This document shows, in pieces, positions 13,248 through 43,902 of a stretch of DNA of 64,000 nt. The stretch is from an uncultured Nitrospina sp. Its GTDB lineage: Bacteria; Nitrospinota; Nitrospinia; Nitrospinales; VA-1. The translations under genes and the position numbers were made by a program. Numbering within the stretch: position 1 is the stretch's first letter; the number at the start of each line of letters is the position of its first letter. Location: the NCBI GenBank assembly GCA_964510965.1, contig CAZECX010000003.1, forward strand, positions 9,670-73,669, in the 5' to 3' direction. The notes beneath the pieces were generated by a model. The model was not told the DNA's origin, searched no databases, and saw nothing but the letters and a program-made list of their open reading frames with translations.

Positions 13248-13307
13248 TAAAGTTATTTAGCAGATTGAGTGAAAAGTAGACAGAGATGTTCCATGATTTT
13301 TTTAACC

Positions 13308-16871: not shown

Positions 16872-17084
16872 CACAAACTCCTTGCACAAGAAGGGCTTAG
16901 TAGAAAGTCTCTCTTGCTATTAACATCAAATGACATGCAAATGTTTAACAGGAAATACCCGCCTAGCACATTAAAACCAAACGGGCTAAACTGATACTAT
17001 AAATTTATTCTTTTGAAAACTAATTATTGGCTGAAGACTTATACAGCGATGAAAAAAAATAGAACTTGGTTTAAGTTTTGCGTA

Positions 17085-18260: not shown

Positions 18261-18521
18261 GGGGAAATATTATTTTTGCAATCATTAATGATAAGCTTAG
18301 AGAATTTTATGCCTGCGGCCGTATAAAAAAAGCTGACCACTCATATTTTCGAGATCATTGCAAGCTGAGCTAAATGCAGACGGTAGATTTGTATTTATTT
18401 CACAAACAGAAATTTGAATTAATCTAAGCATTTTAGAAAAAATAAATCAAGAAAATTGCAAATGGCTTAAATTGGGTATCGTTATGGGAAGGTCGCTTGA
18501 TTTCCGCCTATTACCTCTTCG

Positions 18522-19865: not shown

Positions 19866-19978
19866 TTCACCCTCCGATTCTACGAATTAAATTTTTATAC
19901 CTACCCAAGTCCATGACACTGAGGTATCATTATTAACAGGAGTTTTTAAATCTCTACATGGCCTAATAAAAAGCCCAT

Positions 19979-21061: not shown

Positions 21062-21258
21062 TCTGATTTTCCTAATAATTATTTAACTTTATAAAAATAC
21101 AATAAGGTGGCTAATTTTTTTTAAACCACAAATTAATTTGGCAGCCTTTAGCCTGCATCGAATTTTATATGGCCTAAGCTAAAAGTCTGAGACCCATATG
21201 GCTCAAGATAATACTCAGATTCCCAACAGGCAAAACAGTTGAGTTTACGGCCATCATT

Positions 21259-23229: not shown

Positions 23230-23645
23230 TAAGTGTTGCCTATAAAATCGAAACTTGATATTTAGGGAATATTTTTAGTCTTTAATTATAACAATTTTTT
23301 ATAAATGTGGTCTAGAAACATACTAAATTCAGGCTTTATGCCTATATAATTAAATTTTTTGGAATTAGTCTAAGGGAAGGGTGCGAACCACTAAATTTCA
23401 TGAAAAAAAAATCAAAAAAGATTTACTGAACCTAATTTTTCTTAATTTTTATTTTATCAGATATTCAAAAATCGTGTTAAATGTTTTAAAACTTGCCTCG
23501 CCACAAACTAGTCTCTTTAATATTAATAGCTAGTTTGGGAAATCAAGATAACATCAAATAGTTTTAAAGCTTGAGATTAACTTGGAAGACACATCAAAGG
23601 TCACTGCATCATATTTTCCTCTTGGAGAATCTGGGCAAAAAATCA

Positions 23646-25715
23646 CTAATTTATTAAGGAAGAATTAAAATGATTTGCTTCGGAGAAATGGTCTGTCTCA
23701 TCCATGGAACAATGAGCAGTAGTCGGTGTCAATTGATATCTACCGCGGTACATCTGCATGATTTGGGTTAGATTGAAAACCGAAGGTTTTCCATTTATTA
23801 ACTCGAGATTGCCGACTATTCCATCGGCAGTTAAACCATCTAAACTCATACCAACATCCTTCGAGTCACCGATCTGAAAATCTTTTGGAAAATAACCACT
23901 ATCGACAAGAGCCCTTAAGGCAGGAGGTGACAGCTCAATCGAAGTAGCGTATTCTATGTCTCCGTGCAGGCACCTGAAAATAAAATTTCTTTCCGAACAT
24001 AACCTGATTATCTCATGAATAACCTGTTCAGGCTCATCTGGAAGTAAATGATTTACCTCAAATTCTAACTGACGATAATAAGCTTCATATTCTTTTGGGT
24101 TAACCATAAGGTAAGCAGTAAAAGCATAATTCAACTTTACAAATGCATCATCCCCGAAAAAATTTTCAATGTTATCGGAATCATTTAGAAATTCCTCGAC
24201 CTTTTCTACCGTTTCAAACCATTCACTGGATATCTGACTGTCCAACCATTTAAAAGTTCTGTTTAAAATCGGATGATCAGAACCATTCAATACAAGATTT
24301 GTATACAATTCTGTTATACGCACTCCCTTACTAATTAAGTAGGATACTAAAGGACGGTGATCGCCAAGAGTCAAACCACCAAAAAATAAAGCGCGAATGG
24401 CACGCAATCGAATCATCTCCTTTTCGGTCATTGTGTTTGTGGACCGAACGACCTCCTGCAACTCATAAACGAGTTCCCCTCTATAGATTCCAGAACAACC
24501 TTCAAAAAATCGATATTTAGTTTCCAGATTAAATTTCTCTCTAGATTCCTGGGTCTCCATTTCACTTCCCGGGAGTAATTGAATTTCTCCTCCAAGAATA
24601 TCATTAATGCCATAGCTCATTGCCTGATCAATAGAGTTCAAATGGCTGTCAAAAGATTCCCCTGGAAGGCCCACAAGAATGTCTGTTCTAGTAGTGTGTG
24701 TAAATTGTTTTAGTCTTGAAATTAACGAAACCAGACGCGAAGTACTGATGTTTTTTCTTTTAATGGATTCCAAAACGTTGTCATCAAGGCTTTGAAAGGC
24801 AATATAGGTATTGGTGAGATGACCAAGCACCCGCCCTATTTCGACCATATAATCCTGAGCGGATTTGGACCAATAAACCTCAATCGAAGTAAAGGTTCCT
24901 GTTTCTTCCCATACTTTTCGAATGTAACCTGCTATATCAACATCCCTCTTTAATATTCCAAAATTCGCATCTGCAAAAACCAGTTGAGGGTATTTATTTC
25001 CGAATTGAGTGACATAATCTAAATCGGCTTCGACCCGATCCATGCTGAATATTTGAATTTTACTTAAAGCAGAAATACCCCATACGCAGAAGGTGCAAGC
25101 AAATGGGCATCCGCGATTTGTTTCCATAATGGGAATGAATCCATTTTCCAGGAAAGAGTCCAAAACACCTGTTAGATAGGGGGATGGAATAAAATTGAGA
25201 TCTTTTTCCACAACATAATTTGCTGAGCCAATAATTTTTCCTTGGTAAAGTGAATACCCACAAAAATCTGGATCGGCGCATAAGATTTTTTGCCAATCTT
25301 TTTTAGAAGTGTCCCTCCATAGGATTTCGATTATTTTTGAAAAAGCCAGTTCACCCCCATACATGCAATAAACATCAACAAAGGAATATTTATTTAGAAA
25401 ACCCTCAACTCCTTTCTCATCCGTTGCAATATTAGGCCCTCCCATAACAATAGGAAGATCTGGGAAAGATTCTCTCAGTTTAAAACCCGCAAAAGCATTC
25501 AGTCTTTCATTCCAGGTATAATTGGCAAGTCCAACCAAATCCGGCGGATTATCATCGCAAGCATCCAATAACTCATCGACTGATTTGAATAATCGGTACT
25601 CAACCTGGTCTCCAAAAATTGACTTGGAGTAAGAAGCGAGGTATCCGATACCTAAAGGCACAAACTGCCTTGCAGGCAAATAGTCGTGAGCCAGATCAGC
25701 AAGATATACAATCAC
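23646..25715 (-). CDS. Cobalamin-binding-domain radical SAM protein (class B, long form)
   Basis: GTG start with AAGGA 8 nt upstream. Cluster motif ETNRGCPFACTFCVWG. Paralog of 581-2602. Confidence 0.85.
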   Translation of the reverse strand: MIVYLADLAHDYLPARQFVPLGIGYLASYSKSIFGDQVEYRLFKSVDELLDACDDNPPDLVGLANYTWNERLNAFAGFKLRESFPDLPIVMGGPNIATDEKGVEGFLNKYSFVDVYCMYGGELAFSKIIEILWRDTSKKDWQKILCADPDFCGYSLYQGKIIGSANYVVEKDLNFIPSPYLTGVLDSFLENGFIPIMETNRGCPFACTFCVWGISALSKIQIFSMDRVEADLDYVTQFGNKYPQLVFADANFGILKRDVDIAGYIRKVWEETGTFTSIEVYWSKSAQDYMVEIGRVLGHLTNTYIAFQSLDDNVLESIKRKNISTSRLVSLISRLKQFTHTTRTDILVGLPGESFDSHLNSIDQAMSYGINDILGGEIQLLPGSEMETQESREKFNLETKYRFFEGCSGIYRGELVYELQEVVRSTNTMTEKEMIRLRAIRALFFGGLTLGDHRPLVSYLISKGVRITELYTNLVLNGSDHPILNRTFKWLDSQISSEWFETVEKVEEFLNDSDNIENFFGDDAFVKLNYAFTAYLMVNPKEYEAYYRQLEFEVNHLLPDEPEQVIHEIIRLCSERNFIFRCLHGDIEYATSIELSPPALRALVDSGYFPKDFQIGDSKDVGMSLDGLTADGIVGNLELINGKPSVFNLTQIMQMYRGRYQLTPTTAHCSMDETDHFSEANHFNSSLIN

Positions 25716-25768
25716 AGATTCATCCTTATTAAATTATTAAGCATCCTGAAAAATAGAGTAAGAATCTC

Positions 25769-27418
25769 TCATACAGTTAAGCGTTCTATTTCCGAAGCTG
25801 AAAACTGTGTTTGTTGCAACGGATATGAATCCTTTGGGTTTGATCGGCACCCGCCTGCACCATCTACTAGATAAGGCATTTGACTGCCTTGAGTTTCACC
25901 CAAAAATTCTTTTTTATATATGTCTGAGTATTTTTTTAAAATTGCATTGCCTTCCTCATCATTTTTCTCTGCCAGTTCAATTTGCGGCCATTCACTTTTC
26001 GGGAAATAGCAATACATAGGCAAAGTACGAATCAACCCGTTAATTTCCTCACAACTCAAATACGGAGTCGGCATACGCAGGAGGGATTCTGAAAGAAAAT
26101 GTTTTGTGAGGATATCGGATTCAAGCCAATCATTTTTTAAAGCAACATCCCGCAACTCTGTTCCATGGTAGGGAGTAAAAATACTCACGGTCAAAGTATC
26201 ATAACCCGGTATACGACGAACCAGTTCTATGGTTTCCATCACCATTTCTCTGGTTTCTCCCGGGAATCCAACGATCAAGTTAATCGTGTATGGGATCTCA
26301 CTCTCGGAAATTACTCTGAACCAATTAATGATTTGATCATTGGACCCTCTTCTCTTTAAAATCTTGGTGCGATAAGTTTCATTTCCACATTCAATGGCAT
26401 AGGAGATACGATAGCAACCCACCTCTTTAAGCCGCTTTAGTTTTTGAGCATCACAGGTTTCAGGTCGGGTATTGAACCAAAAGGGCAATTTAAATTCTTC
26501 GTACATATCACAAAAATCATAGACCTCTTTATCTGGACGAGCCAAAAAACTATCATCAACAATGAAAAAGAATTCGGGGTCATAAAGATCAACCAATTCC
26601 CTTATCTCATCGGCAAGACCTACCATTGTTTTTCTCCTTAGAAAACTATCCAACCCTTGTTCCCTGGAAAAAACGACTTGCCCCGGAGAATTGCAATATG
26701 TGCAAGCAAAGGGACACCCGCGGTAAGTCTCTAAGGGAATGGTTTTAAAAATATTCCCTCCCATGGGACGGATAAAACGCTTCTCATCAAACAGGCTGAA
26801 ATCAGGCTGATATTGATTGATATTTACCAGAGGAGATTGAGGGTTTTTATGAATTTCACCCGCCGAGTCTCGATACCAGGTTCCTGGAATATTATGTAAA
26901 GGCTGATTTTTGCGGATTGCTTCTGCGGCCAAAACTATTGTGGTTTCTCCTTCTCCCAAACCCACAAAGTTTATCAAAGGAGATTTAAAACACTCATCCG
27001 GTGCAGCGGTGGGGAAAACTCCTCCGAGAAGAGTGGGAACATTCAAATCTTTTATACATTCCAACATGTTTAGTGACTTACAATAAACATCTTCTACTAC
27101 TGAAAATAGAATCAAGTCAGGCTGAAAACTCATAACCTTCTTTCGAAAGTCACCTAGCATATCGTCTCTAGCACTGATACCAAGGTCGTTTTCCTCGCTG
27201 AACTCTCTCACCTGTAAAAATCTTACCCGCTCTTGGGTACTTGCACCTTCATCATCTGAGTAATGAGTAGTATCAAACAAGTCAACCTTGTAGTCATTAG
27301 ATCTCAATACGCGAGTGAAAATGCCCACAGCAAGGGAAGGAACCAACATCATAGGTAAATTGGGATATACAATAAGAACCTTAATATCTGATTTGGCTCT
27401 TTCTGAATCTCTATTCAA
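25769..27418 (-). CDS. Cobalamin-binding-domain radical SAM protein (class B)
   Basis: N-terminal B12-type domain (IKVLIVYPNLP, DLILFSVVED, TLLGGVFPT, LGEGETTIV) and cluster motif ETYRGCPFACTYCNSP. It lies 53 bp upstream of 23646-25715 on the same strand. Confidence 0.85.
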   Translation of the reverse strand: MNRDSERAKSDIKVLIVYPNLPMMLVPSLAVGIFTRVLRSNDYKVDLFDTTHYSDDEGASTQERVRFLQVREFSEENDLGISARDDMLGDFRKKVMSFQPDLILFSVVEDVYCKSLNMLECIKDLNVPTLLGGVFPTAAPDECFKSPLINFVGLGEGETTIVLAAEAIRKNQPLHNIPGTWYRDSAGEIHKNPQSPLVNINQYQPDFSLFDEKRFIRPMGGNIFKTIPLETYRGCPFACTYCNSPGQVVFSREQGLDSFLRRKTMVGLADEIRELVDLYDPEFFFIVDDSFLARPDKEVYDFCDMYEEFKLPFWFNTRPETCDAQKLKRLKEVGCYRISYAIECGNETYRTKILKRRGSNDQIINWFRVISESEIPYTINLIVGFPGETREMVMETIELVRRIPGYDTLTVSIFTPYHGTELRDVALKNDWLESDILTKHFLSESLLRMPTPYLSCEEINGLIRTLPMYCYFPKSEWPQIELAEKNDEEGNAILKKYSDIYKKEFLGETQGSQMPYLVDGAGGCRSNPKDSYPLQQTQFSASEIERLTV

Positions 27419-27835
27419 TGATTTTCTCCTAACAAGCGTCCATTTTGTGCAGATCTGTATTGGAGACTTCCAAACCTATTTTTCATAATATTTACACCCC
27501 GCTAAAAACCCGGGAAAGCTTCTGCAAAGAATAATTAAAGGAGATTGCCCTTCTAAAAATGTTTGGCCGGACCGCGTCCATTTATTTACCGAAGAGTATA
27601 TAATTAAACCATCTTTTTCAAACGGATACGAGCTTTTGTTGTAATTTCAACAGGCATCTTTATGCATCGACGCACTCTTAATTTTTGCGATTATTATAAG
27701 ACACATTATATCCATGCTATATCAAAGATTTAAAACAGTTCTTGGTATTGATAAATCCATATGTATAGAACCTGAAACCACATCAATTATTGGTTTATAG
27801 GTAAATGGAGGTAAGAAGTAAGAGAAAAATGCCCA

Positions 27836-28843
27836 TTAATTATCATTTTTGAGGGGGGAATCTGGTTTTTGGCAAATCACCATCATATGAGAGCTCCATC
27901 CCGATGAGGCAACCAACTGCTGCCATTGGTCTTTCATTTTATCATCAGCCAGCTCACTAAAAACACGCCAGAAACGGTCCTTTATTTTATCTTGGCTGTT
28001 GGCAAGAATATCCATATCTAGTTTGCCGGGTGTCGTTACTTCCATAACCTCCAGGCCTATCCTACCAAGTAATATTTCTATAGATTTTGGGTTTAGAAAA
28101 TTGAGATGGTGTGGAGGAACAACAGATTTCGATTCCTCCCAAAGCACCTGAATATCTACCCCCGTACCCGAAAGAGTGGTCATTATGAACAGATCGCCAG
28201 GCATCATGATTTTTTCCAGCTGGTTCAAAAAAGCTGAAGGACTGTGAAGATGTTCAAACAATTCGAAACTAACGAATGCTTTGGCACCTGAAGGGAGACT
28301 TTCCTTATCGATATCCTCAAGAAATTTTTCCACTACTTGAAAAGATTTTTCCCGACAGACTGATGCAAAATACGGGTTTGGCTCAATCACCAAAACCGGT
28401 TGCCCCGAAAGACTTTCCATTTCACCAGCAAATAGGCCATACCCTCCACCCACATCGATGACTTTATTATGGGTCGCCTCATATTTTTGCATAGCTTCCA
28501 AAATCATTTTTGCCTTAGGTTTCCACAGTTTCTCTTTTCTTACCTCAGCTGTTTCTTTGTAAAAAGTAGTCGCCCAATACTTTGAAGACGATGATTCAAT
28601 GTAGTACTTCACAAAGTATTCAGCTTTGGGGCGCGGACTCACAAATAACGTTTGGCAATTGGGACAATGCTCATATTCAAAGCTTTGCTTATTAAATGCA
28701 AACTCTCCGTCAGAGTCACAGGCTGGGCACTTAATTCTTTCTCGCTCCACATTCGTAAAATATGTCTGCACATCTTGTTTGCAAAGGCGAAGATGCTCAG
28801 AAAATATTTTCTCAGGGCGAATATCTTCTTCTTTCATTTGCAT
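27836..28843 (-). CDS. Class I SAM-dependent methyltransferase with N-terminal Cys4 zinc-ribbon motif
   Basis: CPACDSDG...CPNCQTLF followed by motif I VIDVGGGYGLFAGEM. Same architecture as 6761-7684. Confidence 0.75.
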   Translation of the reverse strand: MQMKEEDIRPEKIFSEHLRLCKQDVQTYFTNVERERIKCPACDSDGEFAFNKQSFEYEHCPNCQTLFVSPRPKAEYFVKYYIESSSSKYWATTFYKETAEVRKEKLWKPKAKMILEAMQKYEATHNKVIDVGGGYGLFAGEMESLSGQPVLVIEPNPYFASVCREKSFQVVEKFLEDIDKESLPSGAKAFVSFELFEHLHSPSAFLNQLEKIMMPGDLFIMTTLSGTGVDIQVLWEESKSVVPPHHLNFLNPKSIEILLGRIGLEVMEVTTPGKLDMDILANSQDKIKDRFWRVFSELADDKMKDQWQQLVASSGWSSHMMVICQKPDSPLKNDN

Positions 28844-29041
28844 TCTCGTATTTAGAAATTCTTTATGCCAAACAACAATCGGGCAAATTAATTCTGGTTT
28901 TATTTTGAAAATATTTTTTTAAGGGCGACTGATCTAAATCGAGGCGCTAATATTTTTTCTTTTTATTTATGTCGCCTCGGGGAATTCAATATTTCATAAA
29001 AGGTAATTCTTCGTTGAATCCGTATTCATAAGTGCAACCGA

Positions 29042-29755
29042 CTATTCTCCCCCCGCGACAGAAATGACCTGCCCCGTAGTAAAGGAATTTTGATCGGACC
29101 CAAACCAGTAAACTGCATCAGCTATTTCATCAGGCCTAGCCATGCGCTTTGCGGGAATCAATTCCACTCGACTTTTCATATTTTTTTCTGGATCCTTTAT
29201 ATGAGCTTTTGTATCAGTAACTCCCACCCTTAGTGTATTAACAAATACATTTTTCGCGGCCCATTTTTTATGATCGGCCGGCATGAACTCAAGGGAGTGC
29301 TTACTCAGCGAATAGCAAAAACTATTTACTCCTCCTCCAAATTTAACCCCTATACTACCCGCATTAACGATTCGCCCCCAATTTCGCTTAATCATTCCTG
29401 GAGTAACGACTCGTATGAATAATAATGCGGCAATGAGATTTACGTTCAACGTTTCAATTATGTCCGTAGCGGTAATTTCAGAAAATGGTTTTGGCTGAGA
29501 AATAGCAGCCATATTTATCAGAACATCTGTTTTCTGAATGAGGTCTTCATATTGAATTAAAGCTTGTTCAATATCGTTGGAACCAGACAAATTAATCTGA
29601 ACAGCCTGCATACTGGGCGATGCATCAACCAGCTCAAAAAACCCATCCTGCCCGCGATTGTAATGCCCTACAACGTGGAATCCGTTCGCCAGATATTTTT
29701 TGCACGTTGCGATCCCAATATCAGAGCTCGCTCCTGTAATTAAAACCTGTTGCAT
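29042..29755 (-). CDS. Classical short-chain dehydrogenase/reductase (PtmA-like flagellin-modification-type SDR)
   Basis: Cofactor loop VLITGASSDIGIATCKKY and catalytic YSLSK. It sits in an operon with a cytidylyltransferase, as in ptmA/ptmB-type loci. Confidence 0.7.
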   Translation of the reverse strand: MQQVLITGASSDIGIATCKKYLANGFHVVGHYNRGQDGFFELVDASPSMQAVQINLSGSNDIEQALIQYEDLIQKTDVLINMAAISQPKPFSEITATDIIETLNVNLIAALLFIRVVTPGMIKRNWGRIVNAGSIGVKFGGGVNSFCYSLSKHSLEFMPADHKKWAAKNVFVNTLRVGVTDTKAHIKDPEKNMKSRVELIPAKRMARPDEIADAVYWFGSDQNSFTTGQVISVAGGE

Positions 29756-29805
29756 ATCGATACCGTCTTATTAAACTATTTAATCTTACGGGTGTCCCAA
29801 AAATC

Positions 29806-30969
29806 TCAAACCACCGTGCAAGCCGAGCAGGGGTTTCTGTTTTTTCGTTTGCTCTCGATATGATCCGATCTAAGGGTCTCATAATTTGAAGATCGCCAAA
29901 GCTTACTCAAGTCAAACTCTTTTATAGAACCTTGCGACAGGGTTGATTTATAGTCCACATCACAGGGGTTCGCTTTTCCATCCCACCACACAAACATCCT
30001 GCGCCAAAGATCTGAACAGGCTTTGTCCAAACCATTAGCAGGTTGATTATAAACATTTTCCCAAGGATTGTATTTCACAAAAGCGACCTGATCTACAAGA
30101 CCGCCCCAGACTTTCTGCATGGAATCCAGATCCTGCTCATCTGAAAATTTCACCCCGGAAACACGTGTGATGACGGGCAAATCTGGATAACTGGTTTGCC
30201 TTATTTTTTGAAATCGCTCAATGTTGTCTAATATTACCGATAGCTTTCCATTGACCCGGAACTTGCTGTACAAAGGTTCTTCAGCAGCATCTGCAGAAAA
30301 AACTATGGTTTTTACTCCACCAGAAAGAATGGCATGACATTTTTCTTCGTCGAGTAAAGAAGCATTGGTATTTAACTTAAGATTTAAAAATTTGCCTCGA
30401 GTATATTCCAGCATTGGAACGATATCTTTACAGATCATAGGCTCACCACGTGATGCAAGAGATAGAAACTCTATATTCCCCGCAGCCTGATCAATTATTT
30501 TCTTAAACAACTCAAGCGTCATCTGCCCCATAAAACCACTGGCTTTATCTGTAAAAGTTGGATCTGTCTCAAAACAAAAAATGCAACGGAAATTGCATAT
30601 TGAAGAAGGTTCAATTTGCAGATAGGGGGGATATTCGTCCAGAGTTTTTAGCTGCGGAAAAATTTCATAACGATAACGATGAACTAAATACCGTGGCAGA
30701 TCGGAATCAGAGCATGTGGCAATCTCTTCAACAACACTGGGGTTAAGGCTGAATTGGTTGAATTGGTCTTTCGAATCCGAATCAAATAAATCATTGCAGA
30801 CTTGATTAAAAATCTGCTTATGCGCTTGCGACATTTTTTCAGAAAAATCATCTCTTTTCCGAACACTTTTGATACGTTCCAGAGTTTCAGCCAGTGAATT
30901 ATTATCTTTATGCCTGATCTCAAAAAAACTGTTTTGCTTTTGATAAACAGGCCGAGAGTCTTTTTTCAT
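29806..30969 (-). CDS. Radical SAM protein with Cys-rich C-terminal (SPASM/twitch-like) region, no B12 domain
   Basis: Cluster motif IEPSSICNFRCIFCFE lies after a ~115-aa N-terminal extension. C-terminal cysteines are CSDLW...NPCDVDY...NPCSACTVV. Confidence 0.75.
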   Translation of the reverse strand: MKKDSRPVYQKQNSFFEIRHKDNNSLAETLERIKSVRKRDDFSEKMSQAHKQIFNQVCNDLFDSDSKDQFNQFSLNPSVVEEIATCSDSDLPRYLVHRYRYEIFPQLKTLDEYPPYLQIEPSSICNFRCIFCFETDPTFTDKASGFMGQMTLELFKKIIDQAAGNIEFLSLASRGEPMICKDIVPMLEYTRGKFLNLKLNTNASLLDEEKCHAILSGGVKTIVFSADAAEEPLYSKFRVNGKLSVILDNIERFQKIRQTSYPDLPVITRVSGVKFSDEQDLDSMQKVWGGLVDQVAFVKYNPWENVYNQPANGLDKACSDLWRRMFVWWDGKANPCDVDYKSTLSQGSIKEFDLSKLWRSSNYETLRSDHIESKRKNRNPCSACTVV

Positions 30970-30972
30970 TTA

Positions 30973-31734
30973 TTACCTCTGCGCTTCTTTAAAACCATGT
31001 TTACGAAGCCAGAACTCTACCATGGGAACTTGCCATTCGTAATCCACATCGCAGCCTCCCCAATTGGGAATAGGTGCTATGCGCTGGCCCATCCACTTTT
31101 GCGGTAGAAGCCCTTCATTCAATTTTTCCAGACACTCTGGCCGCACTACTGAAATTGCCATATCTGCGAAATGCACATCACCCTGGGAATCGCGATCGCA
31201 ATTCATGGTGAGCGGGTCTCCAAATGTTTCAAATGGAACCATCGGATGCAAACTTCCATCCGCCTGAAGCTTACGCGCCCGGAGTGGACTCCACATATTG
31301 TAAACCGATGTTGTCACCGCAGAGTCATAGCTCTTATCGTTCCTCAAAGCCTCTATACCCTGATCTATTAAGTCAGCATTTAGGGTAGCGCCATTTGCAA
31401 ACAATAAGACAACCAATTCGATTTCCAAATCATTTTGCTTAAGGCGTCTTTTTATTTCTTGATAACCATGAACAAAAACATCTTCACCCAAAGCTTCTTT
31501 AGTCGCCAGCTCGGGCGGGCGATCGATCAACTCTGCATCATGTTCCTTTGAAATCCTTACAATCTCGGGACAATCTGTCGAAACAAAAATTCTTTCAATA
31601 TTTGAAGAAGCCTTAGCTGCTAACAGCGGGTATGCCGCAAGAGGTCTACCCAAAACTGGATAAAAGTTTTTCCCTGGAAAACCCACGCTTCCCTTTCGCC
31701 CAATCATCAATGCACAAATAATAGATCTACTCAA
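30973..31734 (-). CDS. Cytidylyltransferase-family protein (second, divergent CMP-sugar-acid synthetase-like; PtmB/KdsB/NeuA superfamily)
   Basis: The N-terminus ALMIGRKGSVGFPGKNFYPVLGRPLAAYPLLAA fits the CTP_transf_3 pattern (G-x-KG-x-x-x-KN) but is divergent from 11661-12359. Confidence 0.6.
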   Translation of the reverse strand: MSRSIICALMIGRKGSVGFPGKNFYPVLGRPLAAYPLLAAKASSNIERIFVSTDCPEIVRISKEHDAELIDRPPELATKEALGEDVFVHGYQEIKRRLKQNDLEIELVVLLFANGATLNADLIDQGIEALRNDKSYDSAVTTSVYNMWSPLRARKLQADGSLHPMVPFETFGDPLTMNCDRDSQGDVHFADMAISVVRPECLEKLNEGLLPQKWMGQRIAPIPNWGGCDVDYEWQVPMVEFWLRKHGFKEAQR

Positions 31735-31747
31735 CGCTTATAAACCC

Positions 31748-32401
31748 TTAAAAATTTAGATTCTCAAATGAAGGCCCTTTAAACTTTTTTTGAAGCTCGT
31801 GGTTTAAGGGTGTGCGGCGCAACAAAAAAGCAACATTATTTTCTCGAGCTGCCTCAAAGTCTGTCCCTGAATCTCCAACTACCAGAGCCTGGTCTGACTG
31901 GAAATCAAAACGCTTTAATGCATCTTTTATCATCACGGATTTTTCTTTGGGTGCCCCATGCACCTCCTTGAAATAAGGGAATAACTCCAACGCCTGAAGT
32001 ATTTGCTCAATTTCCTCCTGAGGGGTGCCCGTTATAAGGATAAAACATTGTCTCTTGTGATGGGTCTTTAAAAATTCATGGACACCTGGGACCCACGGAG
32101 AATCAATCACAGCCTGTTGCACCAATCTGGAAAACTGAACACAATACTCTTGAACTTTAGCCAAATCAGGAGACAGACCTGCCCAGCTTAAATAAAGGGG
32201 TATTTTTTCGAAACGCGAAACCCCACCATGCACCTCATGATGTTGATTGACCCGCTCAACCACTTCTTTTCCAAATGGAGCAAATAGTTTTGCGTATCCG
32301 AGGGATTTAACGCTCACAGAATCTTTTATGACTCCATCAAAATCCCAAAAAACAATTTTAAATTTTTCTACCAATTTTCCTGGCCAGTGTTCCGGTGACA
32401 T
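31748..32401 (-). CDS. HAD-superfamily hydrolase (phosphatase)
   Basis: Motif I FWDFDGVIKDS and motif IV VVGDSGTDFEAA. Confidence 0.75.
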   Translation of the reverse strand: MSPEHWPGKLVEKFKIVFWDFDGVIKDSVSVKSLGYAKLFAPFGKEVVERVNQHHEVHGGVSRFEKIPLYLSWAGLSPDLAKVQEYCVQFSRLVQQAVIDSPWVPGVHEFLKTHHKRQCFILITGTPQEEIEQILQALELFPYFKEVHGAPKEKSVMIKDALKRFDFQSDQALVVGDSGTDFEAARENNVAFLLRRTPLNHELQKKFKGPSFENLNF

Positions 32402-32430
32402 TGAGCGTCATCAGCTGGAAGTTTCTGTCG

Positions 32431-33324
32431 TCATTTATTTCGACGCACTTCATCTATTAACTGGATTAGCCCCTGCCCCATGTCTACATGGAATGGAGCT
32501 ACATATTTGCGTCCGAGTTTGGGTAGATAGGCATAGGGAGTATGTATATAATGGCCGGGATAATCCCCTTCAATAAATTCCACTGAACCAGGAAAATCAA
32601 GAATTTCAGCTAACATTTTCAACAAGTCAACCACCCTCATAGGCTCTTGGCCGGTCAAAACAACACTCTGATTTTGAAAATCATCCCCCAAAACCTTCAC
32701 GCTTGCTTTTGCTGCATCTTCGACATGAATGTATTCGCGAAGAGCTTCAGGGCTTCCCTCATAACGCACCACGCCAGATTCCAAGGCATTATTTATAATT
32801 CGGAACAGACCATTACTCTTGTCAGCCCTAGGCCCATAAAGCGAACCATAGCGCAATATAGTGTAATCCAGATTGTAAACTCTTTGGTATTCTTCTATAT
32901 AGTTTTCCGCTGCTTGCTTACTGCAACGGTAAAAACTTCCTTCACGGCTGTATACATAAACCGTACTGGCAAAAATGAAACGCTTGACCCCATTCAAGCG
33001 GCAAGCCTCCAAGGCATTGATATTCCCCAGAATATTGATTTCAGCAGTTTCGATTGGCTTATTTCTAGCTAAATCTAAATCTGCTAAAGCTGCAAAATTA
33101 TAAACCACCTCCGACCCGGATATTGATTTAATGAGGAGGTCTTTATCGGCTAAATCTCCGATAATCATATCCTGATCTTCCCCTTTCCAGCGGGAGTCAG
33201 TACGATCAAAAATTCGTACTTGGTATCCCTCTTGCGTCAATTGGTCGGCCACATGGGAGCCTATAAATCCGCTACCTCCTATTACCGTTACATTGCGTTT
33301 TTCATTGCCTTTAATTTGGCTCAT
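32431..33324 (-). CDS. NAD-dependent epimerase/dehydratase (extended SDR)
   Basis: VTVIGGSGFIGSHVADQL and catalytic YRCSK. Confidence 0.75.
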   Translation of the reverse strand: MSQIKGNEKRNVTVIGGSGFIGSHVADQLTQEGYQVRIFDRTDSRWKGEDQDMIIGDLADKDLLIKSISGSEVVYNFAALADLDLARNKPIETAEINILGNINALEACRLNGVKRFIFASTVYVYSREGSFYRCSKQAAENYIEEYQRVYNLDYTILRYGSLYGPRADKSNGLFRIINNALESGVVRYEGSPEALREYIHVEDAAKASVKVLGDDFQNQSVVLTGQEPMRVVDLLKMLAEILDFPGSVEFIEGDYPGHYIHTPYAYLPKLGRKYVAPFHVDMGQGLIQLIDEVRRNK

Positions 33325-33333
33325 AATAACCCT

Positions 33334-34308
33334 TCAACTTTGAATCTCGTATTCTGATTGTGGTACCTCGTTTTGCAAGGGTTTCCCGGCAAGAAAACGA
33401 ACAGCTTCCTCAGTTGCCTCAATTTCCATCTGAGATCGACAGTCAACTGACATGGATCCCATATGAGCTGTCAGCAAACAACGATCTATTTCAAAAAGCT
33501 CCCCTTTGTAGGGTTCATTTTCGAAAACATCAATAGCTGCCCCTCCAAGGCAATCTTCTTTCATCACATTATATAGATCCTTTTCATTGATGATGCCCCC
33601 TCTAGAGGTATTTATAATTAAGGCATCTTTTTTCATTTGGAGCAACTGTTCCCTGCAAATCATGCCCCGGGTAAGAGGAGTTAGGGGAAGGTGTAAACTG
33701 ATAACGTCTGCCTCTCTATAAATTTTTTCTTTAGTAACCCATTCAATTTCGAATTCTCGATCCAATTCACGGTTTGGCAAAATATCATTGACTAAAACAC
33801 GAATTTTACCAAACCCTCTCATAAGGCGCAACAGATGGGTTCCTATCCTCCCAACTCCAATTATACCAACAGTAGTACCAGCAAGTCTTCGGCCAAAAAT
33901 TCGCTTCCAATTTCCCTGGCGCATTTGCTGATTGGAAACATGAACTGAGCGTAAGAGACTTAACATCATGCATAGGGCAAGCTCAGCTACAGCTGGGGCA
34001 GGCGCATCTGGAGTATAGGAAACCTTAATCCCCCTTTCCCTGGCGGCGATTAAATCAATACTATCCAATCCAATACCTACCCTAGAGATGAATTTAAGTT
34101 TTTGAGCTTGAGCCATTACTTTATCCGTAATCGGTTCCGTGCCCGCAACAAGGACATCAATATCACGAATTAATTCGGATAATTGGTCTTCGGTAAGCTT
34201 CTTTCCATAAGGGTTTATTTGGTATTGGATCTTCGCTTTTTCAAGTAAATCCAACGGAAGCCGATTATTTTCTCCAAAGGGAACAGTGGTGATAAGTACT
34301 TTTGCCAT
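33334..34308 (-). CDS. D-isomer-specific 2-hydroxyacid dehydrogenase (phosphoglycerate dehydrogenase-like)
   Basis: NAD loop GIIGVGRIGTHLLRL plus LHLPLTPLTRGMI, INTSRGGII, AAIDVFENEP and LLTAHMGS. It is the first gene of the minus-strand run 34308->27836. Confidence 0.8.
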   Translation of the reverse strand: MAKVLITTVPFGENNRLPLDLLEKAKIQYQINPYGKKLTEDQLSELIRDIDVLVAGTEPITDKVMAQAQKLKFISRVGIGLDSIDLIAARERGIKVSYTPDAPAPAVAELALCMMLSLLRSVHVSNQQMRQGNWKRIFGRRLAGTTVGIIGVGRIGTHLLRLMRGFGKIRVLVNDILPNRELDREFEIEWVTKEKIYREADVISLHLPLTPLTRGMICREQLLQMKKDALIINTSRGGIINEKDLYNVMKEDCLGGAAIDVFENEPYKGELFEIDRCLLTAHMGSMSVDCRSQMEIEATEEAVRFLAGKPLQNEVPQSEYEIQS

Positions 34309-34565
34309 TCTAATACAAGCCTCTTAGGGATAACGGGACGGCTTTAACTTAAATAAACTTTTCTTTCACGTTGAACCACATTATTTTTGGTTCTCGATCT
34401 TCAATATACTCAATAGTCATTTAAAAACCAAGTACCCGCTTCCAGCAAATTTTTTCTTGAACGTGTTGAGCACTTGAGTTTGTAAACCCTATAGCGAATT
34501 GCTAAAATAATTTGAAACGTTGACCTATACTCTATTTGAATAGCTCTACATATAATTAAACCTCC

Positions 34566-35288
34566 ATGAAATCCATCCGCGTATTTTCTGATTCTGAAGA
34601 GATGGCTGAAGAGATAGCCCGTTGCTGGCATGAAAAAGCTAGGCAGACAGCAAAAGAACAACTTATATTTTCTGTCGTATTGTCTGGCGGAAAAACCGCC
34701 TCACTGCTTTATGGTAAATTGTCTCAACCTGAATGGAGAGATAGAATTCCCTGGGAAACGGTCCATATTTTTTTTGCAGATGAACGGTGCGTATCTCCGA
34801 AGAATGAAGAAAGTAATTATAAAATTGCAAGCGATCATCTATTGAAACATATTTCTATTCCCGCCAAAAACATTCATAGAATTCGTGGAGAAGAAAACCC
34901 CGAAAAAGAAGCCATTCACTACGCAAAAGAAATTCAAAGCCACTTGGCTCTTAGAAAAGGAGATATTAATTTCTTTGATTGGGTTTTACTTGGTGTTGGG
35001 ACTGATGGTCATACAGCCTCTCTTTTCCCTCAACAAGATATTATTAATTCCAAAAAACTTTGCGAAGTATCTCAGCATCCTGACACTGGGCAAAAAAGAA
35101 TAACCATGACCCCGGCGACGATAAATAGATCACATCGTATAACCTATCATGTTATTGGGGAAGAAAAATCTGAAATAGTTTTCAAACTGGCATCCAACCC
35201 ATCGGTAATCAATATATATCCCACCTTGAGGATCCAAGGAGAATGGTTTCTTGATAGAGAGGCTTCCGCAAAATTTGATTTTCCCTGA
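34566..35288 (+). CDS. pgl: 6-phosphogluconolactonase
   Basis: FSVVLSGGKTAS, FFADERCV and LLGVGTDGHTASLFP are the Pgl/NagB-family signatures, of the lactonase type. Confidence 0.75.
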   Translation: MKSIRVFSDSEEMAEEIARCWHEKARQTAKEQLIFSVVLSGGKTASLLYGKLSQPEWRDRIPWETVHIFFADERCVSPKNEESNYKIASDHLLKHISIPAKNIHRIRGEENPEKEAIHYAKEIQSHLALRKGDINFFDWVLLGVGTDGHTASLFPQQDIINSKKLCEVSQHPDTGQKRITMTPATINRSHRITYHVIGEEKSEIVFKLASNPSVINIYPTLRIQGEWFLDREASAKFDFP

Positions 35289-39717: not shown

Positions 39718-39733
39718 TCCTCCCGGTAAAAAC

Positions 39734-42410: not shown

Positions 42411-42525
42411 ACGTCTGGACACCAAAACCTCTCTAGGGCATACTCACCTTTCGAAAACTTTAAAGGCCAAGAAATTTTAATAGCTGATGTTCTTGAATCC
42501 TTTTATTTTCAAGAATTGAACCGAA

Positions 42526-43125: not shown

Positions 43126-43160
43126 CTCAATTTTTAATTTAAAGGAAGAAAAAAATATCG

Positions 43161-43889: not shown

Positions 43890-43902
43890 TATCGAAAAAA
43901 TT

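Follow-up and report, generated by a model that had tools for sequence, protein, structure and literature searches.

Epimerisation of a nonulosonic acid by a cytidylyltransferase-containing enzyme pair has been described in Acinetobacter. NMR work showed that EpaA, a fusion of a CTP_transf_3 domain and an aldo-keto reductase, and EpaB, a classical short-chain dehydrogenase/reductase (SDR), turn Pse5Ac7Ac into its 8-epimer; their locus lies far from the K locus (PMC12053666). A small ulosonic acid also has a precedent, as the E. coli K3 capsule is credited with 4-deoxy-2-hexulosonic acid in a citation within PMC10433991 (its reference 32).

The locus described here is from an uncultured Nitrospina sp. 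(contig CAZECX010000003.1). The window is the whole stretch of 64,000 nt that was analysed, and all positions refer to it. The seven minus-strand open reading frames of the original prediction were each recovered at exactly the predicted coordinates, Pfam and NCBIfam agreed with the domains proposed for all seven, and the gaps between consecutive genes, predicted as 3-50 bp with one of about 200 bp, measured 9, 29, 13, 3, 50 and 198 bp. The features of the locus are as follows.

34566-35288, plus strand: 6-phosphogluconolactonase-family gene (Pfam Glucosamine_iso and TIGR01198)
34309-34565, no strand: divergent intergenic region of 257 bp between the dehydrogenase and lactonase genes
33334-34308, minus strand: D-isomer 2-hydroxyacid dehydrogenase (2-Hacid_dh and 2-Hacid_dh_C)
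32431-33324, minus strand: GalE-like extended SDR, epimerase/dehydrogenase (Pfam Epimerase)
31748-32401, minus strand: HAD-IA phosphatase (Pfam Hydrolase, HAD_2)
30973-31734, minus strand: divergent cytidylyltransferase (CTP_transf_3)
29806-30969, minus strand: radical SAM enzyme (Radical_SAM and SPASM)
29042-29755, minus strand: classical SDR ketoreductase (adh_short / adh_short_C2)
27836-28843, minus strand: zinc-ribbon class I methyltransferase (Methyltransf_23 and a CxxC...CxxC N-terminus)

No terminator-like sites were found inside the operon gaps, and promoter and terminator matches did not exceed shuffled expectation; co-transcription of the minus-strand genes is therefore regarded as plausible. 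The divergent intergenic region contained a single promoter-like match (34480-34508, plus strand), not above chance, and no Rfam match; it is probably a promoter region serving both the dehydrogenase and the lactonase genes. The window also contains genes for NeuB (19979-21061; NeuB_NnaB, 468.7 bits), for a canonical cytidylyltransferase (11661-12359) and for DegT and PglD-like proteins.

Conservation was assessed in a comparison set of 80 loci from more than 20 phyla, including methanogens, of which 41 had at least 8 kb on both sides and are referred to as well-flanked. Across the 80 loci the conserved core consists of the cytidylyltransferase, a 2-hydroxyacid dehydrogenase resembling phosphoglycerate dehydrogenase (PGDH), the GalE-like SDR and the HAD phosphatase, with the radical SAM enzyme plus ketoreductase and the 6-phosphogluconolactonase as frequent extras. 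Gene order varies from phylum to phylum. One explanation is that the genes are neighbours by chance of a dense glycan island and serve several unrelated pathways, and the window does hold more than 40 glycan-related and ten radical SAM genes, promoter and terminator signals define no operon, and the methyltransferase is not co-conserved. However, the same six families recur beside the cytidylyltransferase on a shared strand in more than 20 phyla and in archaea despite the shuffled order, the gaps are only 3-50 bp, and fusions tie two of the families together; we consider a chance grouping strongly disfavoured, to the point of being extremely improbable. By sequence comparison, the window cluster is instead one copy of a widespread cassette, present in more than 20 bacterial phyla and methanogenic archaea and without prior characterisation; no description of it was found in the literature searched, and complete E. 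coli genomes contained no match at the DNA level.

The co-conservation by which the original prediction was to be judged is thus strong across phyla, in varying order and reinforced by cytidylyltransferase-dehydrogenase fusions, but the proposed seven-gene unit has to be redrawn. Methyltransferase homologues were found in 3/41 well-flanked loci, and the gene is missing from the contig of an 88%-identical relative (P0002); a homologue with 48% identity occurs in a SAR11 locus (L034). The gene follows the 198-bp gap, with a promoter-like site at 28871-28842, and its product matches Methyltransf_23 with 49.5 bits and carries CPAC...CPNC at the N-terminus. It is only loosely attached and lies outside the conserved cassette, apparently as a lineage-specific tailoring gene. 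The divergent lactonase at 34566-35288, on the opposite strand, is in turn an eighth member beyond the seven.

The cytidylyltransferase is recognised by PF02348 (CTP_transf_3) with 46.5 bits over residues 12-144 only, and reaches 64.7 bits against the NCBIfam PseF model (cut-off 205.7). The TTG start given by the coordinates above yields 253 aa and is preferred to the ATG of the public gene call (244 aa), since homologues conserve residues 7-9. Relatives with 57-82% identity occur in more than 20 phyla and in methanogens, and 98 cluster representatives matched with E<1e-30. An AF2 model (pLDDT 82) gave CMP-Neu5Ac, CMP-Pse and CMP-Kdn synthetases and KdsB as top Foldseek matches (TM 0.65-0.72), and profile-profile alignment to canonical enzymes had 99.7% probability; on this model the fold is that of NeuA/PseF/KdsB. 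The original prediction had made retention of CTP-binding residues a test of its activation reading, and these are conserved: invariant R13, K22, N23 and the DxD pair D229/D231 align with canonical catalytic motifs, and conserved R181 takes the position of the 'TQRQ' Arg of canonical enzymes. Residues for binding CTP, Mg and the carboxylate are kept. The canonical sugar motif 'QPTSPLR' is replaced by 'FANGATL', and the C-terminal half could not be aligned by sequence alone to any solved enzyme. Two proteins of the family carry a fused GT29 sialyltransferase-like domain; GT29 enzymes use CMP-sialic acid donors. Transferases of the LIC12162 family (TIGR04331), proposed as possible sialic-acid transferases, also border the cassette in 16 loci. 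The protein looks like a putative active CMP-ulosonate synthetase for a new substrate.

The divergent C-terminal, substrate-binding half, unlike that of all solved CMP-ulosonate synthetases in sequence, could also mean that the enzyme acts on a phosphate rather than an anomeric hydroxyl, yielding a CDP-linked alcohol or acid (analogous to CDP-glycerol, CDP-ribitol or LPPG) that donates a phosphodiester-linked substituent. IspD and GlmU-type enzymes were also among the structural matches, the invariant arginines R152, R154, R181 and R198 could bind a second anionic group, and phosphorylated ketones are the usual substrates of the HisC-like aminotransferases of sister loci. Yet CMP-ulosonate synthetases account for all the top structural and profile matches, the 'TQRQ'-aligned Arg and DxD pair are kept, the GT29 fusions fit a CMP-ketoside, and a dedicated phosphatase beside the cytidylyltransferase argues for a dephosphorylated substrate. 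A CDP-linked product therefore appears remote.

Of the well-flanked loci, 27/41 contain the 2-hydroxyacid dehydrogenase, in each case encoded on the cytidylyltransferase strand. Independent fusions of the two enzymes are found in three 50%-identity clusters (P0287, P0314 and P0370). Their dehydrogenase parts share 52-54% identity with the window protein across its entire length, and one fusion is located in a typical cassette (L086). The window protein scores 175.8 bits to 2-Hacid_dh_C and 87.6 bits to 2-Hacid_dh; its best NCBIfam model is PGDH (228.7 bits, far under the cut-off of 454). The closest solved structure is P. horikoshii PGDH (1wwk, 199 bits), whereas a probable 2-ketogluconate reductase (9m0t) reached only 121 bits. 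Catalytic Arg, Glu and His align with PGDHs. The archaeal PGDHs 1wwk and 2ekl carry 'VRS(K/R)', of which 'VRS' binds phosphate in PGDHs, and the window protein has 'VAGT' there. Because of this substitution and a score about half the cut-off, we classify the protein from its sequence as PGDH-like and not a true PGDH. Three loci (L022, L024 and L043) have no D-2-hydroxyacid dehydrogenase; there, the slot between the SDR and HAD genes is filled by an unrelated Ldh_2 dehydrogenase (369 bits), so 2-hydroxyacid oxidoreduction is taken as the conserved function.

The partner most often co-conserved is the GalE-like SDR, with orthologues (at least 40% identity) in 32/41 well-flanked loci, usually directly after the dehydrogenase. 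It scores 156.5 bits to Pfam Epimerase, shows GxxGxxG and YxxxK motifs, and is nearest among solved structures to short UDP-glucose 4-epimerases (4zrm, 97.6 bits, residues 10-244). The HAD phosphatase, found in 26/41 well-flanked loci, has the nucleophile DxD motif 'DFDGV' at residues 20-24, is phosphoglycolate-phosphatase-like by NCBIfam, and had the sugar-phosphate phosphatase TM1254 as its sole PDB sequence match. Its gene adjoins that of the cytidylyltransferase, as in KdsC/KdsB. In actinobacterial variants the HAD is absent and a DHQ-synthase-like gene (168 bits to DHQS) is found instead; the substrate of DHQ synthase is an ulosonate phosphate. The lactonase scores 204 bits to Glucosamine_iso and 173.9 bits to the TIGR01198 pgl model, above its cut-off of 124.45. 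Homologues occur in 11/41 well-flanked loci. In L005-L007 the gene immediately precedes that of the dehydrogenase, and in L022, L024, L025 and L043 it is placed between the cytidylyltransferase and SDR genes.

The original prediction had offered, as an alternative, the supply of a glycerate-like hydroxy-acid substituent. In a fuller form of this explanation, the early genes would provide glycerate, hydroxypyruvate or a serine-like unit from 3-phosphoglycerate, to be attached through an N-acyl or ether link to a nonulosonic acid or a different sugar. The dehydrogenase is indeed nearest to PGDHs and glyoxylate/hydroxypyruvate reductases, the HAD assignment agrees, and dehydrogenase, phosphatase and the HisC-like aminotransferase of sister loci together mimic SerA/SerC/SerB. 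N-glyceroyl nonulosonates exist without known genetics (PMC5378307), C. jejuni has di-O-methylglyceroyl forms, and methyltransferases are frequent in the cassette. This explanation nevertheless fared poorly. 'VRS', present in both archaeal PGDHs of the alignment, is missing from the dehydrogenase, and an acyl-activating enzyme (CoA ligase, ACP or ATP-grasp) is not part of the conserved set. The cytidylyltransferase, GalE-like SDR, radical SAM enzyme and lactonase would be left without a role; the NeuA-fold cytidylyltransferase, GalE-like SDR, lactonase, GFO/IDH/MocA and DHQS-like proteins and sugar-type radical SAM enzyme point to a sugar-sized substrate. Moreover, enzymes of the NeuA/KdsB fold cytidylylate a cyclic hemiketal, which a C3 keto acid cannot form. 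We regard hydroxy-acid supply as very unlikely.

The radical SAM enzyme matches Radical_SAM (49.2 bits) and SPASM (43 bits) and has an N-terminal extension of about 110 aa. The SPASM assignment of the original prediction held but the described cysteine richness did not: besides C125/C129/C132, only four C-terminal cysteines are conserved (C318, C336, C381 and C384), which suggests one auxiliary cluster and not the full SPASM pair. BtrN was the top PDB sequence match, a weak one (31 bits), and the fold search, on a low-confidence model, gave unspecific matches. The neighbour of the gene encodes an SDR in 14 loci and a HisC-like aminotransferase in 13; no locus has both, and three have neither. 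Because the two never co-occur, the radical SAM product is probably a ketone. When no aminotransferase is present, the ketoreductase gene is at most three genes away from the radical SAM gene and in most cases follows it immediately; the window ketoreductase (adh_short_C2 112.5 bits; FabG-like 136 bits) is the likely partner of the radical SAM enzyme. A keto-sugar-type AP_endonuc_2 isomerase sits between the two in cyanobacterial loci, and a GFO/IDH/MocA dehydrogenase substitutes for the radical SAM enzyme in actinobacterial variants. In agreement with the original prediction that such enzymes have no described role in these pathways, no paper combining nonulosonic acids with radical SAM was found in the literature searched.

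EpaA/EpaB and 8-epi-pseudaminic acid are the model for a further explanation, in which the cassette tailors a nonulosonic acid of the neighbouring NeuB pathway (Leg, Pse or Neu), the oxidoreductases (radical SAM enzyme, SDRs and GalE-like enzyme) epimerising or deoxygenating it and the second cytidylyltransferase re-activating it. Epimerisation of a nonulosonic acid by that pair is established (PMC12053666), and NeuB, canonical cytidylyltransferase, DegT and PglD-like genes share the window. The LIC12162-family transferases bordering the cassette were proposed in one genome-comparison paper, from adjacency to neuABC, as possible sialic-acid transferases working with those genes. About 13 of the 80 loci have NeuB or a canonical cytidylyltransferase no more than 10 kb away. 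However, among well-flanked loci NeuB is present within the 8-10 kb flanks in 7/41 and absent nearby in 34/41, and a second, canonical cytidylyltransferase is present in 6/41. Tailoring also provides no role for the three tightest-linked partners, the 2-hydroxyacid dehydrogenase (fused in three clusters), phosphatase and lactonase; nonulosonic acids lack a 2-hydroxy acid group; and the sugar-recognition motif of Neu/Pse/Leg synthetases is not kept. We judge tailoring unlikely. The ptmA/ptmB analogy of the original prediction, drawn from Campylobacter flagellin glycosylation, fails similarly, as the conserved partners are the dehydrogenase and phosphatase and a NeuB-type synthase is infrequent.

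The reading we favour, with somewhat better than even confidence, is that the cassette makes a 2-ulosonic (2-keto) sugar acid in CMP-activated form, with no aldol synthase of the NeuB or KdsA type involved, and then tailors it. A second, non-standard acidic sugar, built and CMP-activated, is thus what survives of the original prediction as the best-supported interpretation, on the CTP-binding residues, co-conservation and fusions; its unit composition and ptmA/ptmB frame do not. Sialic acids and Kdo arise by aldol condensation, whereas the proposed route is a sugar-acid oxidation. Coupling of dehydrogenase and cytidylyltransferase through co-occurrence, shuffled order and fusions speaks for it; the HAD beside the cytidylyltransferase, the recurring lactonase and the actinobacterial DHQS-like enzyme fit sugar-phosphate logic; and the few loci with NeuB or a canonical cytidylyltransferase suggest independence from nonulosonic acid synthesis. 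Against it, the nearest solved relatives of the dehydrogenase (PGDHs and glyoxylate reductases) act on C2-C3 acids and not sugar acids, the lactonase is limited to about a quarter of loci, the resemblance of sister loci to the phosphoserine pathway could mean a C3 substrate, the GalE-like SDR fits no particular step, the structural matches of the radical SAM enzyme are unspecific and come from a low-confidence model, and there are the Acinetobacter precedent and the NeuB and canonical cytidylyltransferase of the window. No description of a CMP-2-keto-aldonate was found in the literature searched, and to our knowledge none is known.

We infer the substrates, the step order and the carbon number of the sugar, for which C6 is preferred and C7-C8 would also be possible. 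A phosphorylated aldonic acid would be supplied, likeliest 6-phosphogluconate from the adjacent lactonase, and the PGDH-like enzyme would oxidise its C2 hydroxyl to give a 2-keto-aldonate phosphate; conversion of 6-phosphogluconate to 2-keto-6-phosphogluconate as the starting reaction is a tentative suggestion. The HAD phosphatase would remove the terminal phosphate in KdsC-like fashion, letting the keto acid ring-close, and the cytidylyltransferase would couple CMP to the anomeric C2 hydroxyl. A ring carbon would then be epimerised or oxidised by the GalE-like SDR. The radical SAM enzyme may act as a BtrN-type dehydrogenase or an AprD4-type diol dehydratase and turn a carbinol into a ketone. 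The adjacent ketoreductase would reduce this ketone, with epimerisation or deoxygenation as the net result; the aminotransferase of sister loci would instead give an amino sugar. In this lineage the methyltransferase may add a methyl group, and the product would be received by a glycosyltransferase of the large glycan island.

The original prediction described seven consecutive genes on the minus strand, and all seven ORFs were found exactly where it placed them, with every predicted domain borne out by Pfam and NCBIfam. The genes are listed here together with the neighboring features that bear on their function.

Genes of the operon and of its setting in the window
33334-34308, minus strand: 2-hydroxyacid dehydrogenase
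32431-33324, minus strand: GalE-like SDR
31748-32401, minus strand: HAD phosphatase
30973-31734, minus strand: cytidylyltransferase
29806-30969, minus strand: radical SAM enzyme
29042-29755, minus strand: FabG-like (classical) SDR, second to last in the operon (Pfam/NCBIfam)
27836-28843, minus strand: Methyltransf_23 protein with a zinc-ribbon-like N-terminus, last in the operon (Pfam/NCBIfam)
34566-35288, plus strand: lactonase, immediately upstream of the operon on the opposite strand, scoring above the TIGR01198 cut-off
7681-12359: nonulosonic acid set of two PglD-like acyltransferases, an SDR, a DegT protein and a canonical cytidylyltransferase
19979-21061: NeuB, which belongs with the nonulosonic acid set

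Gaps between the seven ORFs measured 9, 29, 13, 3, 50 and 198 bp. Promoter- and terminator-like matches did not exceed shuffled expectation and none fell inside an intergenic gap; Rfam gave no match in the window, and no meaningful repeats were found in the operon region. The sequence comes from a metagenomic contig of an uncultured organism with a G+C content of about 0.39, and the operon is surrounded by a very large glycan island that also encodes several glycosyltransferases.

The cytidylyltransferase matched Pfam PF02348 at 46.5 bits (cut-off 22.6), with only residues 12-144 aligned to profile positions 6-128 of 217. None of the curated KdsB, PseF or NeuA cut-offs was reached; the protein scored 64.7 bits with the PseF model TIGR03584 (cut-off 205.7) and 19-28 bits with the KdsB models (cut-offs 193-255). 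When an AF2 model of the protein (pLDDT 82) was compared with the PDB by Foldseek, the top 38 matches were all CMP-Neu5Ac, CMP-Pse, CMP-Kdn or CMP-Kdo synthetases, each with a probability of 1.0 and TM values of 0.61-0.72. The CTP-binding residues on which the predicted CMP activation depends were conserved: R13, K22, N23, D229 and D231 were invariant across 28 homologues, and in an hhalign comparison with canonical enzymes from the window and related loci (99.7% probability, 231 columns) they paired with the canonical 'AR..SK..KN' and 'DID' motifs. R181, within 'CDRDSQG', was likewise invariant and paired with the arginine of the canonical 'TQRQ' motif, which we take to be the residue that binds the sugar carboxylate (R165 in the N. 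meningitidis enzyme). The sugar-contact motifs 'QPTSP(L)R' and 'NGA' were absent, with 'FANGATL' and 'ADMA' in their place, and a sequence HMM could not align the C-terminal half with any solved enzyme. With its catalytic residues kept and its sugar motifs replaced, this appears to be an active enzyme whose substrate is probably a carboxylated keto-sugar, one unlike the sugars of all characterized members.

The protein belongs to a large family of unusually high conservation. Its relatives numbered 5,766 at E<=1e-5 in a 90%-clustered database, the best being 70-91% identical, and 98 cluster representatives were recovered at E<1e-30 from a 50%-clustered library. Only canonical NeuA-like proteins with 30-39% identity were matched in the plasmid collection, and the phage collection yielded no match. 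NCBIfam has no curated model for this protein, nor for the radical SAM enzyme. The public gene call is a 244-aa product that starts at an internal ATG and so lacks residues 1-9, of which 7-9 are conserved and match the beginning of canonical enzymes; a TTG start at 31734 agrees better with the homologues. Because of the internal start in the public call, an exact look-up of the 253-aa product returned no entry.

We scanned one genome per species and recovered 119 relatives, from which 80 loci were kept (cytidylyltransferase 57-82% identical). Carriers among the 80 loci included Nitrospinae, Nitrosomonadaceae, Gallionella, cyanobacteria, Actinomycetota, Elusimicrobia, Pelagibacteraceae, Omnitrophota, Planctomycetes, Thermodesulfobacteriota, Acidobacteria, NC10, Leptospira and other spirochaetes, as well as the archaea Methanoregula, Methanolobus and Methanomicrobium. 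All window proteins were compared with these loci, and the ORFs of the window and the related loci, 1,236 in all, were clustered. Partners were counted in the 41 loci that had at least 8 kb on both sides of the cytidylyltransferase.

Partner families of the cytidylyltransferase in the 41 loci
GalE-like SDR: 32 loci
2-hydroxyacid dehydrogenase: 27 loci
HAD phosphatase: 26 loci
Radical SAM orthologue: 18 loci
Classical SDR: 18 loci
Lactonase: 11 loci
NeuB, within 8-10 kb: 7 loci
Canonical second cytidylyltransferase: 6 loci
Methyltransferase: 3 loci

Thus the check on neighborhood conservation proposed with the original prediction came out in its favor, with the same families recurring around the cytidylyltransferase across phyla. 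The first six families were encoded on the strand of the cytidylyltransferase in nearly every locus. Gene order differed among lineages: Nitrospinae carry lactonase, dehydrogenase, SDR, HAD, cytidylyltransferase and radical SAM, Elusimicrobia and Methanolobus carry radical SAM, cytidylyltransferase, SDR, dehydrogenase, SDR and HAD, and the Betaproteobacteria have the cassette in a split arrangement. Such shuffling among phyla marks the cassette as a functional module, as opposed to synteny retained by descent. The notion that the cassette genes are chance neighbors deserves hardly any credence and is ruled out by these comparative data.

Replacements within the cassette were also informative. 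In three thermodesulfobacterial/deltaproteobacterial loci (L022, L024 and L043), the D-2-hydroxyacid dehydrogenase was absent and an Ldh_2-family dehydrogenase (369 bits) lay between the SDR and HAD genes, a substitution which indicates that oxidoreduction of a 2-hydroxy acid is the conserved requirement of the cassette. DHQ synthase takes a ulosonic acid phosphate as its substrate and eliminates the phosphate. Actinobacterial loci have neither the HAD nor the radical SAM gene; in their place are genes for a GFO/IDH/MocA oxidoreductase and for a protein that resembles 3-dehydroquinate synthase (168 bits to DHQS), and by analogy this replacement is consistent with a ulosonate phosphate as the common intermediate.

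Several further features of the related loci were recorded. In L022, L024 and L043, the gene immediately upstream of the cytidylyltransferase encodes a Sulfotransfer_1 protein (e.g., 9060-9956 in L024), a hint that the sugar may also be made in a sulfated form. Among contigs filed as viral, just one has a family member (L085, IMGVR_UViG_3300009788_004654); it carries the whole cassette, with genes for an FkbM methyltransferase, the cytidylyltransferase, a short-type radical SAM protein, an SDR, a B12-radical SAM protein, the dehydrogenase and the GalE-like SDR. This contig could be cellular DNA wrongly classed as viral, or could derive from the flank of a provirus. In the SAR11 single-cell genome Pelagibacteraceae AG-414-E02 (locus L034), the region 3244-17129 shares more than the cassette with window positions 17085-33324, namely the zinc-ribbon methyltransferase (48% identity), the 689-aa radical SAM protein encoded at 23646-25715 (44%) and, at 26%, the orphan of 17085-18260. 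There may be a larger conserved block in marine lineages.

Clustering of the 1,236 ORFs placed no KdsA- or NeuB-type aldol synthase among the recurrent neighbor families. In the strongest competing explanation, the cassette tailors the neighboring nonulosonic acid and then re-activates the modified sugar. EpaA, a cytidylyltransferase with an aldo-keto reductase, and the SDR EpaB do exactly this in Acinetobacter baumannii prophages, where they convert Pse5Ac7Ac to 8-epi-Pse5Ac7Ac (PMC12053666), and the two systems are alike in that an extra CTP_transf_3 cytidylyltransferase and oxidoreductases, including a classical SDR, would yield a new CMP-activatable acidic sugar. A NeuB pathway is moreover present in the window. 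However, EpaA is fused to an aldo-keto reductase and not to a 2-hydroxyacid dehydrogenase, and EpaA/EpaB depend on the Pse pathway and have no radical SAM enzyme, phosphatase or lactonase. Tailoring of a nonulosonic acid would leave the dehydrogenase, phosphatase and lactonase without a role, and NeuB was found near the cassette in few of the related loci. We therefore regard this explanation as unlikely.

Both Pfam D-isomer 2-hydroxyacid dehydrogenase domains were detected in the dehydrogenase (175.8 and 87.6 bits), and its 'SRGG', 'FENEP' and 'AHMGS' motifs align with the catalytic Arg/Glu/His motifs of solved members. Among solved structures, those closest to it are archaeal phosphoglycerate dehydrogenases and glyoxylate reductases. 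The protein scored 228.7 bits with the PGDH model TIGR01327, half of the cut-off of 454, compared with 203 bits for glyoxylate reductase, 138.7 bits for GhrB and 121 bits for the probable 2-ketogluconate reductase 9m0t. In PGDH, the Arg-Ser of the 'VRS' motif contacts the phosphate of 3-phosphoglycerate. The window protein has 'VAGT' in place of the 'VRSK' of 1wwk and the 'VRSR' of 2ekl, and 'AGTE' is also present in all three cytidylyltransferase-dehydrogenase fusion proteins described below. Judged by the loss of this phosphate-contact motif, the protein is probably not a true PGDH.

The original prediction had offered as an alternative that the operon supplies a glycerate-like substituent, which would suit the PGDH-like and phosphoglycolate-phosphatase-like labels of the dehydrogenase and HAD proteins and could account for N-glyceroyl groups, whose genetics are unknown. 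This alternative fared poorly against a dehydrogenase without the 'VRS' motif, a conserved gene set without an acyl-activating enzyme and the sugar-type partners of the cassette, and we consider it improbable. The D-2-hydroxyacid dehydrogenase superfamily includes 2-ketogluconate(-6-phosphate) reductases. Among these, KguD (2-ketogluconate-6-phosphate reductase) and GhrB/TkrA (2-ketoaldonate reductase) act on sugar acids and interconvert 2-keto-(6-phospho)gluconate and (6-phospho)gluconate. The window enzyme shares their superfamily and catalytic Arg/Glu/His, although it scores higher with the PGDH and glyoxylate reductase models than with GhrB, and the reaction proposed here would run in the oxidative direction.

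Three representatives of the 50%-identity clusters of the cytidylyltransferase family (P0287, P0314 and P0370) are single polypeptides with the cytidylyltransferase at the N-terminus and a dehydrogenase orthologue at the C-terminus. Their dehydrogenase halves are 52-54% identical to the window dehydrogenase over its full length, and one of these fusions sits in a typical cassette (L086). These fusions argue that the dehydrogenase and the cytidylyltransferase act in one pathway. Two other representatives (P0300 and P0367) carry a domain of the GT29 sialyltransferase family behind the cytidylyltransferase, which points to a sialyltransferase-like enzyme as the consumer of the cytidylyltransferase product. 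A CDP-linked product is disfavored by the GT29 fusions, as well as by the phosphatase that adjoins the cytidylyltransferase, and is quite improbable. Many cassette loci are flanked by LIC12162-family (TIGR04331) and TIGR04326-family proteins; in one genome-comparison paper, the LIC12162 family was put forward as a possible sialic-acid transferase since it lies beside neuABC. No window homologue of a product-using transferase was found with HMMs of the LIC12162-family and TIGR04326-like transferases or with the GT29-like domains of the fusion proteins.

The lactonase scored 173.9 bits with TIGR01198 (cut-off 124.45) and at most 41 bits with NagB models. The HAD protein is a capped type IA enzyme and not of the KdsC type. 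The GalE-like SDR often adjoins the lactonase, and a role as an Azf- or Udh-like sugar-phosphate 1-dehydrogenase feeding the lactonase was considered; its best solved matches are short UDP-glucose 4-epimerases, and the Azf model gave only 29 bits.

On balance, we favor the reading that the cassette encodes a synthase-independent route to a CMP-activated 2-ulosonic acid, with every substrate assignment inferred. The route would begin with the supply of a phospho-aldonate; the lactonase makes 6-phosphogluconate the obvious candidate, although that it is specifically this metabolite is rather doubtful. C2 oxidation of the phospho-aldonate would be followed by dephosphorylation, and the dephosphorylated keto acid would then be cytidylylated. 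Tailoring would fall to the GalE-like SDR, the radical SAM/ketoreductase pair and, in the lineage of the window, the methyltransferase.

A close parallel to this route is found in the late steps of Kdo synthesis (KdsC then KdsB), where a phosphatase likewise adjoins a cytidylyltransferase of the CTP_transf_3 fold; the phosphatase and CMP-synthetase steps for Kdn-9-P and Neu5Ac-9-P are similar. The fold and catalytic residues of KdsB are common to the cassette cytidylyltransferase, and the shared logic would be to dephosphorylate and then CMP-activate an alpha-keto sugar acid. In contrast to the Kdo pathway, the cassette lacks a KdsA- or NeuB-type aldol synthase and has the 2-hydroxyacid dehydrogenase as a fixed and even fused partner; its HAD is type IA capped and its sugar-binding motif is replaced. 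The original prediction had compared the operon with ptmA/ptmB of Campylobacter. That comparison holds in so far as a CTP_transf_3 cytidylyltransferase is paired with an SDR in a glycan locus that makes nonulosonic acid. PtmB (LegF), however, is a canonical CMP-legionaminic acid synthetase, and its role in the window fits the other cytidylyltransferase, 11661-12359, which scored 138.6 bits with the PseF model versus 64.7 for the focal enzyme. The dehydrogenase, phosphatase, lactonase and radical SAM enzyme are, to our knowledge, foreign to the ptm set.

The CX3CX2C motif of the radical SAM enzyme (C125-x3-C129-x2-C132) was invariant in 33 sequences, and the family comprised 2,684 relatives at E<=1e-10. 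Pfam SPASM was matched at 43 bits; the only other conserved cysteines were C180 and, toward the C-terminus, C318, C336, C381 and C384, fewer than the at least seven of a full SPASM domain with two auxiliary clusters. The four C-terminal cysteines would be enough for one auxiliary cluster of a twitch-like type, and their spacing of 17, 44 and 2 residues presumably resembles that of the BtrN twitch domain. BtrN was also the best PDB sequence match, a weak one of 31 bits limited to the core. With a low-confidence model (pLDDT 66), BtrN ranked sixth behind SuiB and BlsE at a TM of 0.37, and the fold search did not discriminate among BtrN, BlsE, DesII, viperin, SuiB and EpeE, so it was given no weight in assigning a function.

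Gene context was more informative. Within three genes of the radical SAM orthologue in 30 loci, 14 had a classical SDR, 13 had a HisC-like aminotransferase, none had both and three had neither. At least one of these three lies on a truncated contig, and both of the others yielded an SDR homologue in a relaxed search. Cyanobacteria encode, between the radical SAM gene and the SDR, a xylose-isomerase-like TIM barrel protein. The HisC-like aminotransferase was considered as an equivalent of KdnA, with Kdo8N as precedent, and rejected; its top solved matches were histidinol-phosphate aminotransferases. Known radical SAM pairs of such a kind are BtrN then BtrS in butirosin, a dehydrogenase followed by an aminotransferase, and AprD4 then AprD3 in apramycin, a diol dehydratase followed by an SDR reductase. 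In each case, a radical SAM enzyme with a single auxiliary cluster is followed by an aminotransferase or ketoreductase, and the simplest reading is that the cassette enzyme makes a ketone that is then reduced or transaminated. Unlike BtrN, the cassette enzyme has an extra N-terminal domain of about 110 residues, and its substrate would be a sugar acid or CMP ester, in contrast to the aminocyclitol or pseudodisaccharide of BtrN and AprD4.

The 64-kb glycan island holds ten radical SAM genes: 581-2602, 21259-23229, 23646-25715, 25769-27418, 29806-30969, 36454-37620, 47476-48996, 49510-51048, 52717-53559 and 56437-58047. Six of the ten have B12-binding domains in Pfam; 23646-25715 has no B12 domain match, yet it is 31% identical to the B12-type protein of 581-2602. 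B12-radical SAM genes are embedded in the cassette in 24 related loci, and C-methylation of the sugars is a possible role for these enzymes. Behind a PhyH-family dioxygenase (51600-52514) lies a second, shorter radical SAM/SPASM protein (52717-53559, 280 aa), which did not group with the focal enzyme in the clustering.

Downstream of the 7681-12359 set, the interval 12369-21061 encodes formyltransferase-like and aminoglycoside-N-acetyltransferase-like proteins, an AMP-binding ligase, an AP_endonuc_2 protein and NeuB, so that the genes of 7681-21061 suggest a nonulosonic acid with unusual N-acyl groups. A plus-strand run at 38728-44481 encodes a GHMP kinase, a DAO-type flavoprotein, an RmlD-like SDR, an NTP_transferase, a HAD phosphatase (Hydrolase_like/HAD_2), a transaldolase/FSA and a SIS isomerase, and has the look of what we take to be a GDP-heptose pathway (HddA, HddC, GmhB and GmhA roles) with its own supply of sedoheptulose-7-phosphate and extra tailoring. 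Five ORFs of 391-705 aa had no Pfam or NCBIfam match (17085-18260, 18522-19865, 3166-4437, 4617-6707 and 44509-46626). Homologues of the first adjoin the cassette in three related loci (L021, L034 and L072); the last, with about seven hydrophobic stretches, could be a polymerase or transferase of the membrane. A 2026 preprint describes ulosonic acids from Magnetospirillum that are CMP-activated, have a C10 backbone and are of unexplained origin.

Full-text literature searches found no description of the cassette. The original prediction held that the radical SAM enzyme has no described role in such pathways, and a full-text search agreed, with no paper found that contains both "nonulosonic" and "radical SAM". 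The enzymes of the cassette all fall into known classes, and CMP-activated keto sugar acids are an established class of product; new would be the proposed way in which the keto acid is formed, and that a radical SAM enzyme takes part. In all CMP-activated sugars known to us (sialic, legionaminic and pseudaminic acids, Kdo and Kdn), the keto-acid head comes from an aldol condensation with PEP. A keto acid made by oxidation would thus open a new branch of nucleotide-sugar metabolism. We know of no genetics for small ulosonic acids such as that of the E. coli K3 capsule, for which the cassette offers candidate genes. The K3 sugar is 4-deoxy-2-hexulosonic acid, as cited in PMC10433991. A blastn search of complete E. 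coli genomes with a cassette of about 50% GC gave no match at the DNA level.

In its broadest form, we tentatively propose a third, unrecognized route to CMP-activated acidic keto-sugars in bacteria and archaea, a possibility that we hold at less than even confidence. A phospho-aldonate from central metabolism would be C2-oxidized by a dedicated dehydrogenase, dephosphorylated and cytidylylated, and radical SAM remodeling would then lead to epimeric, deoxy or amino hex(hept)-2-ulosonic acids. If true, a radical SAM enzyme would for the first time be reported to act in CMP-activated sugar biosynthesis, and two orphan families, the large radical SAM family and that of the cytidylyltransferase, would gain a biochemical function. 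Cultured carriers (Raphidiopsis/Cylindrospermopsis raciborskii, Methanolobus psychrotolerans, Desulfovibrio sp. 7SRBS1 and Leptospira sp.) make direct testing possible. The cassette would predict an undescribed family of acidic surface sugars, and its carriers include very abundant marine and freshwater microbes (Pelagibacteraceae, Nitrospinae and cyanobacteria) as well as Leptospira and methanogenic archaea. If the proposal is true, SAR11, Nitrospina, cyanobacteria, Leptospira and methanogens would share a new class of surface sugar.
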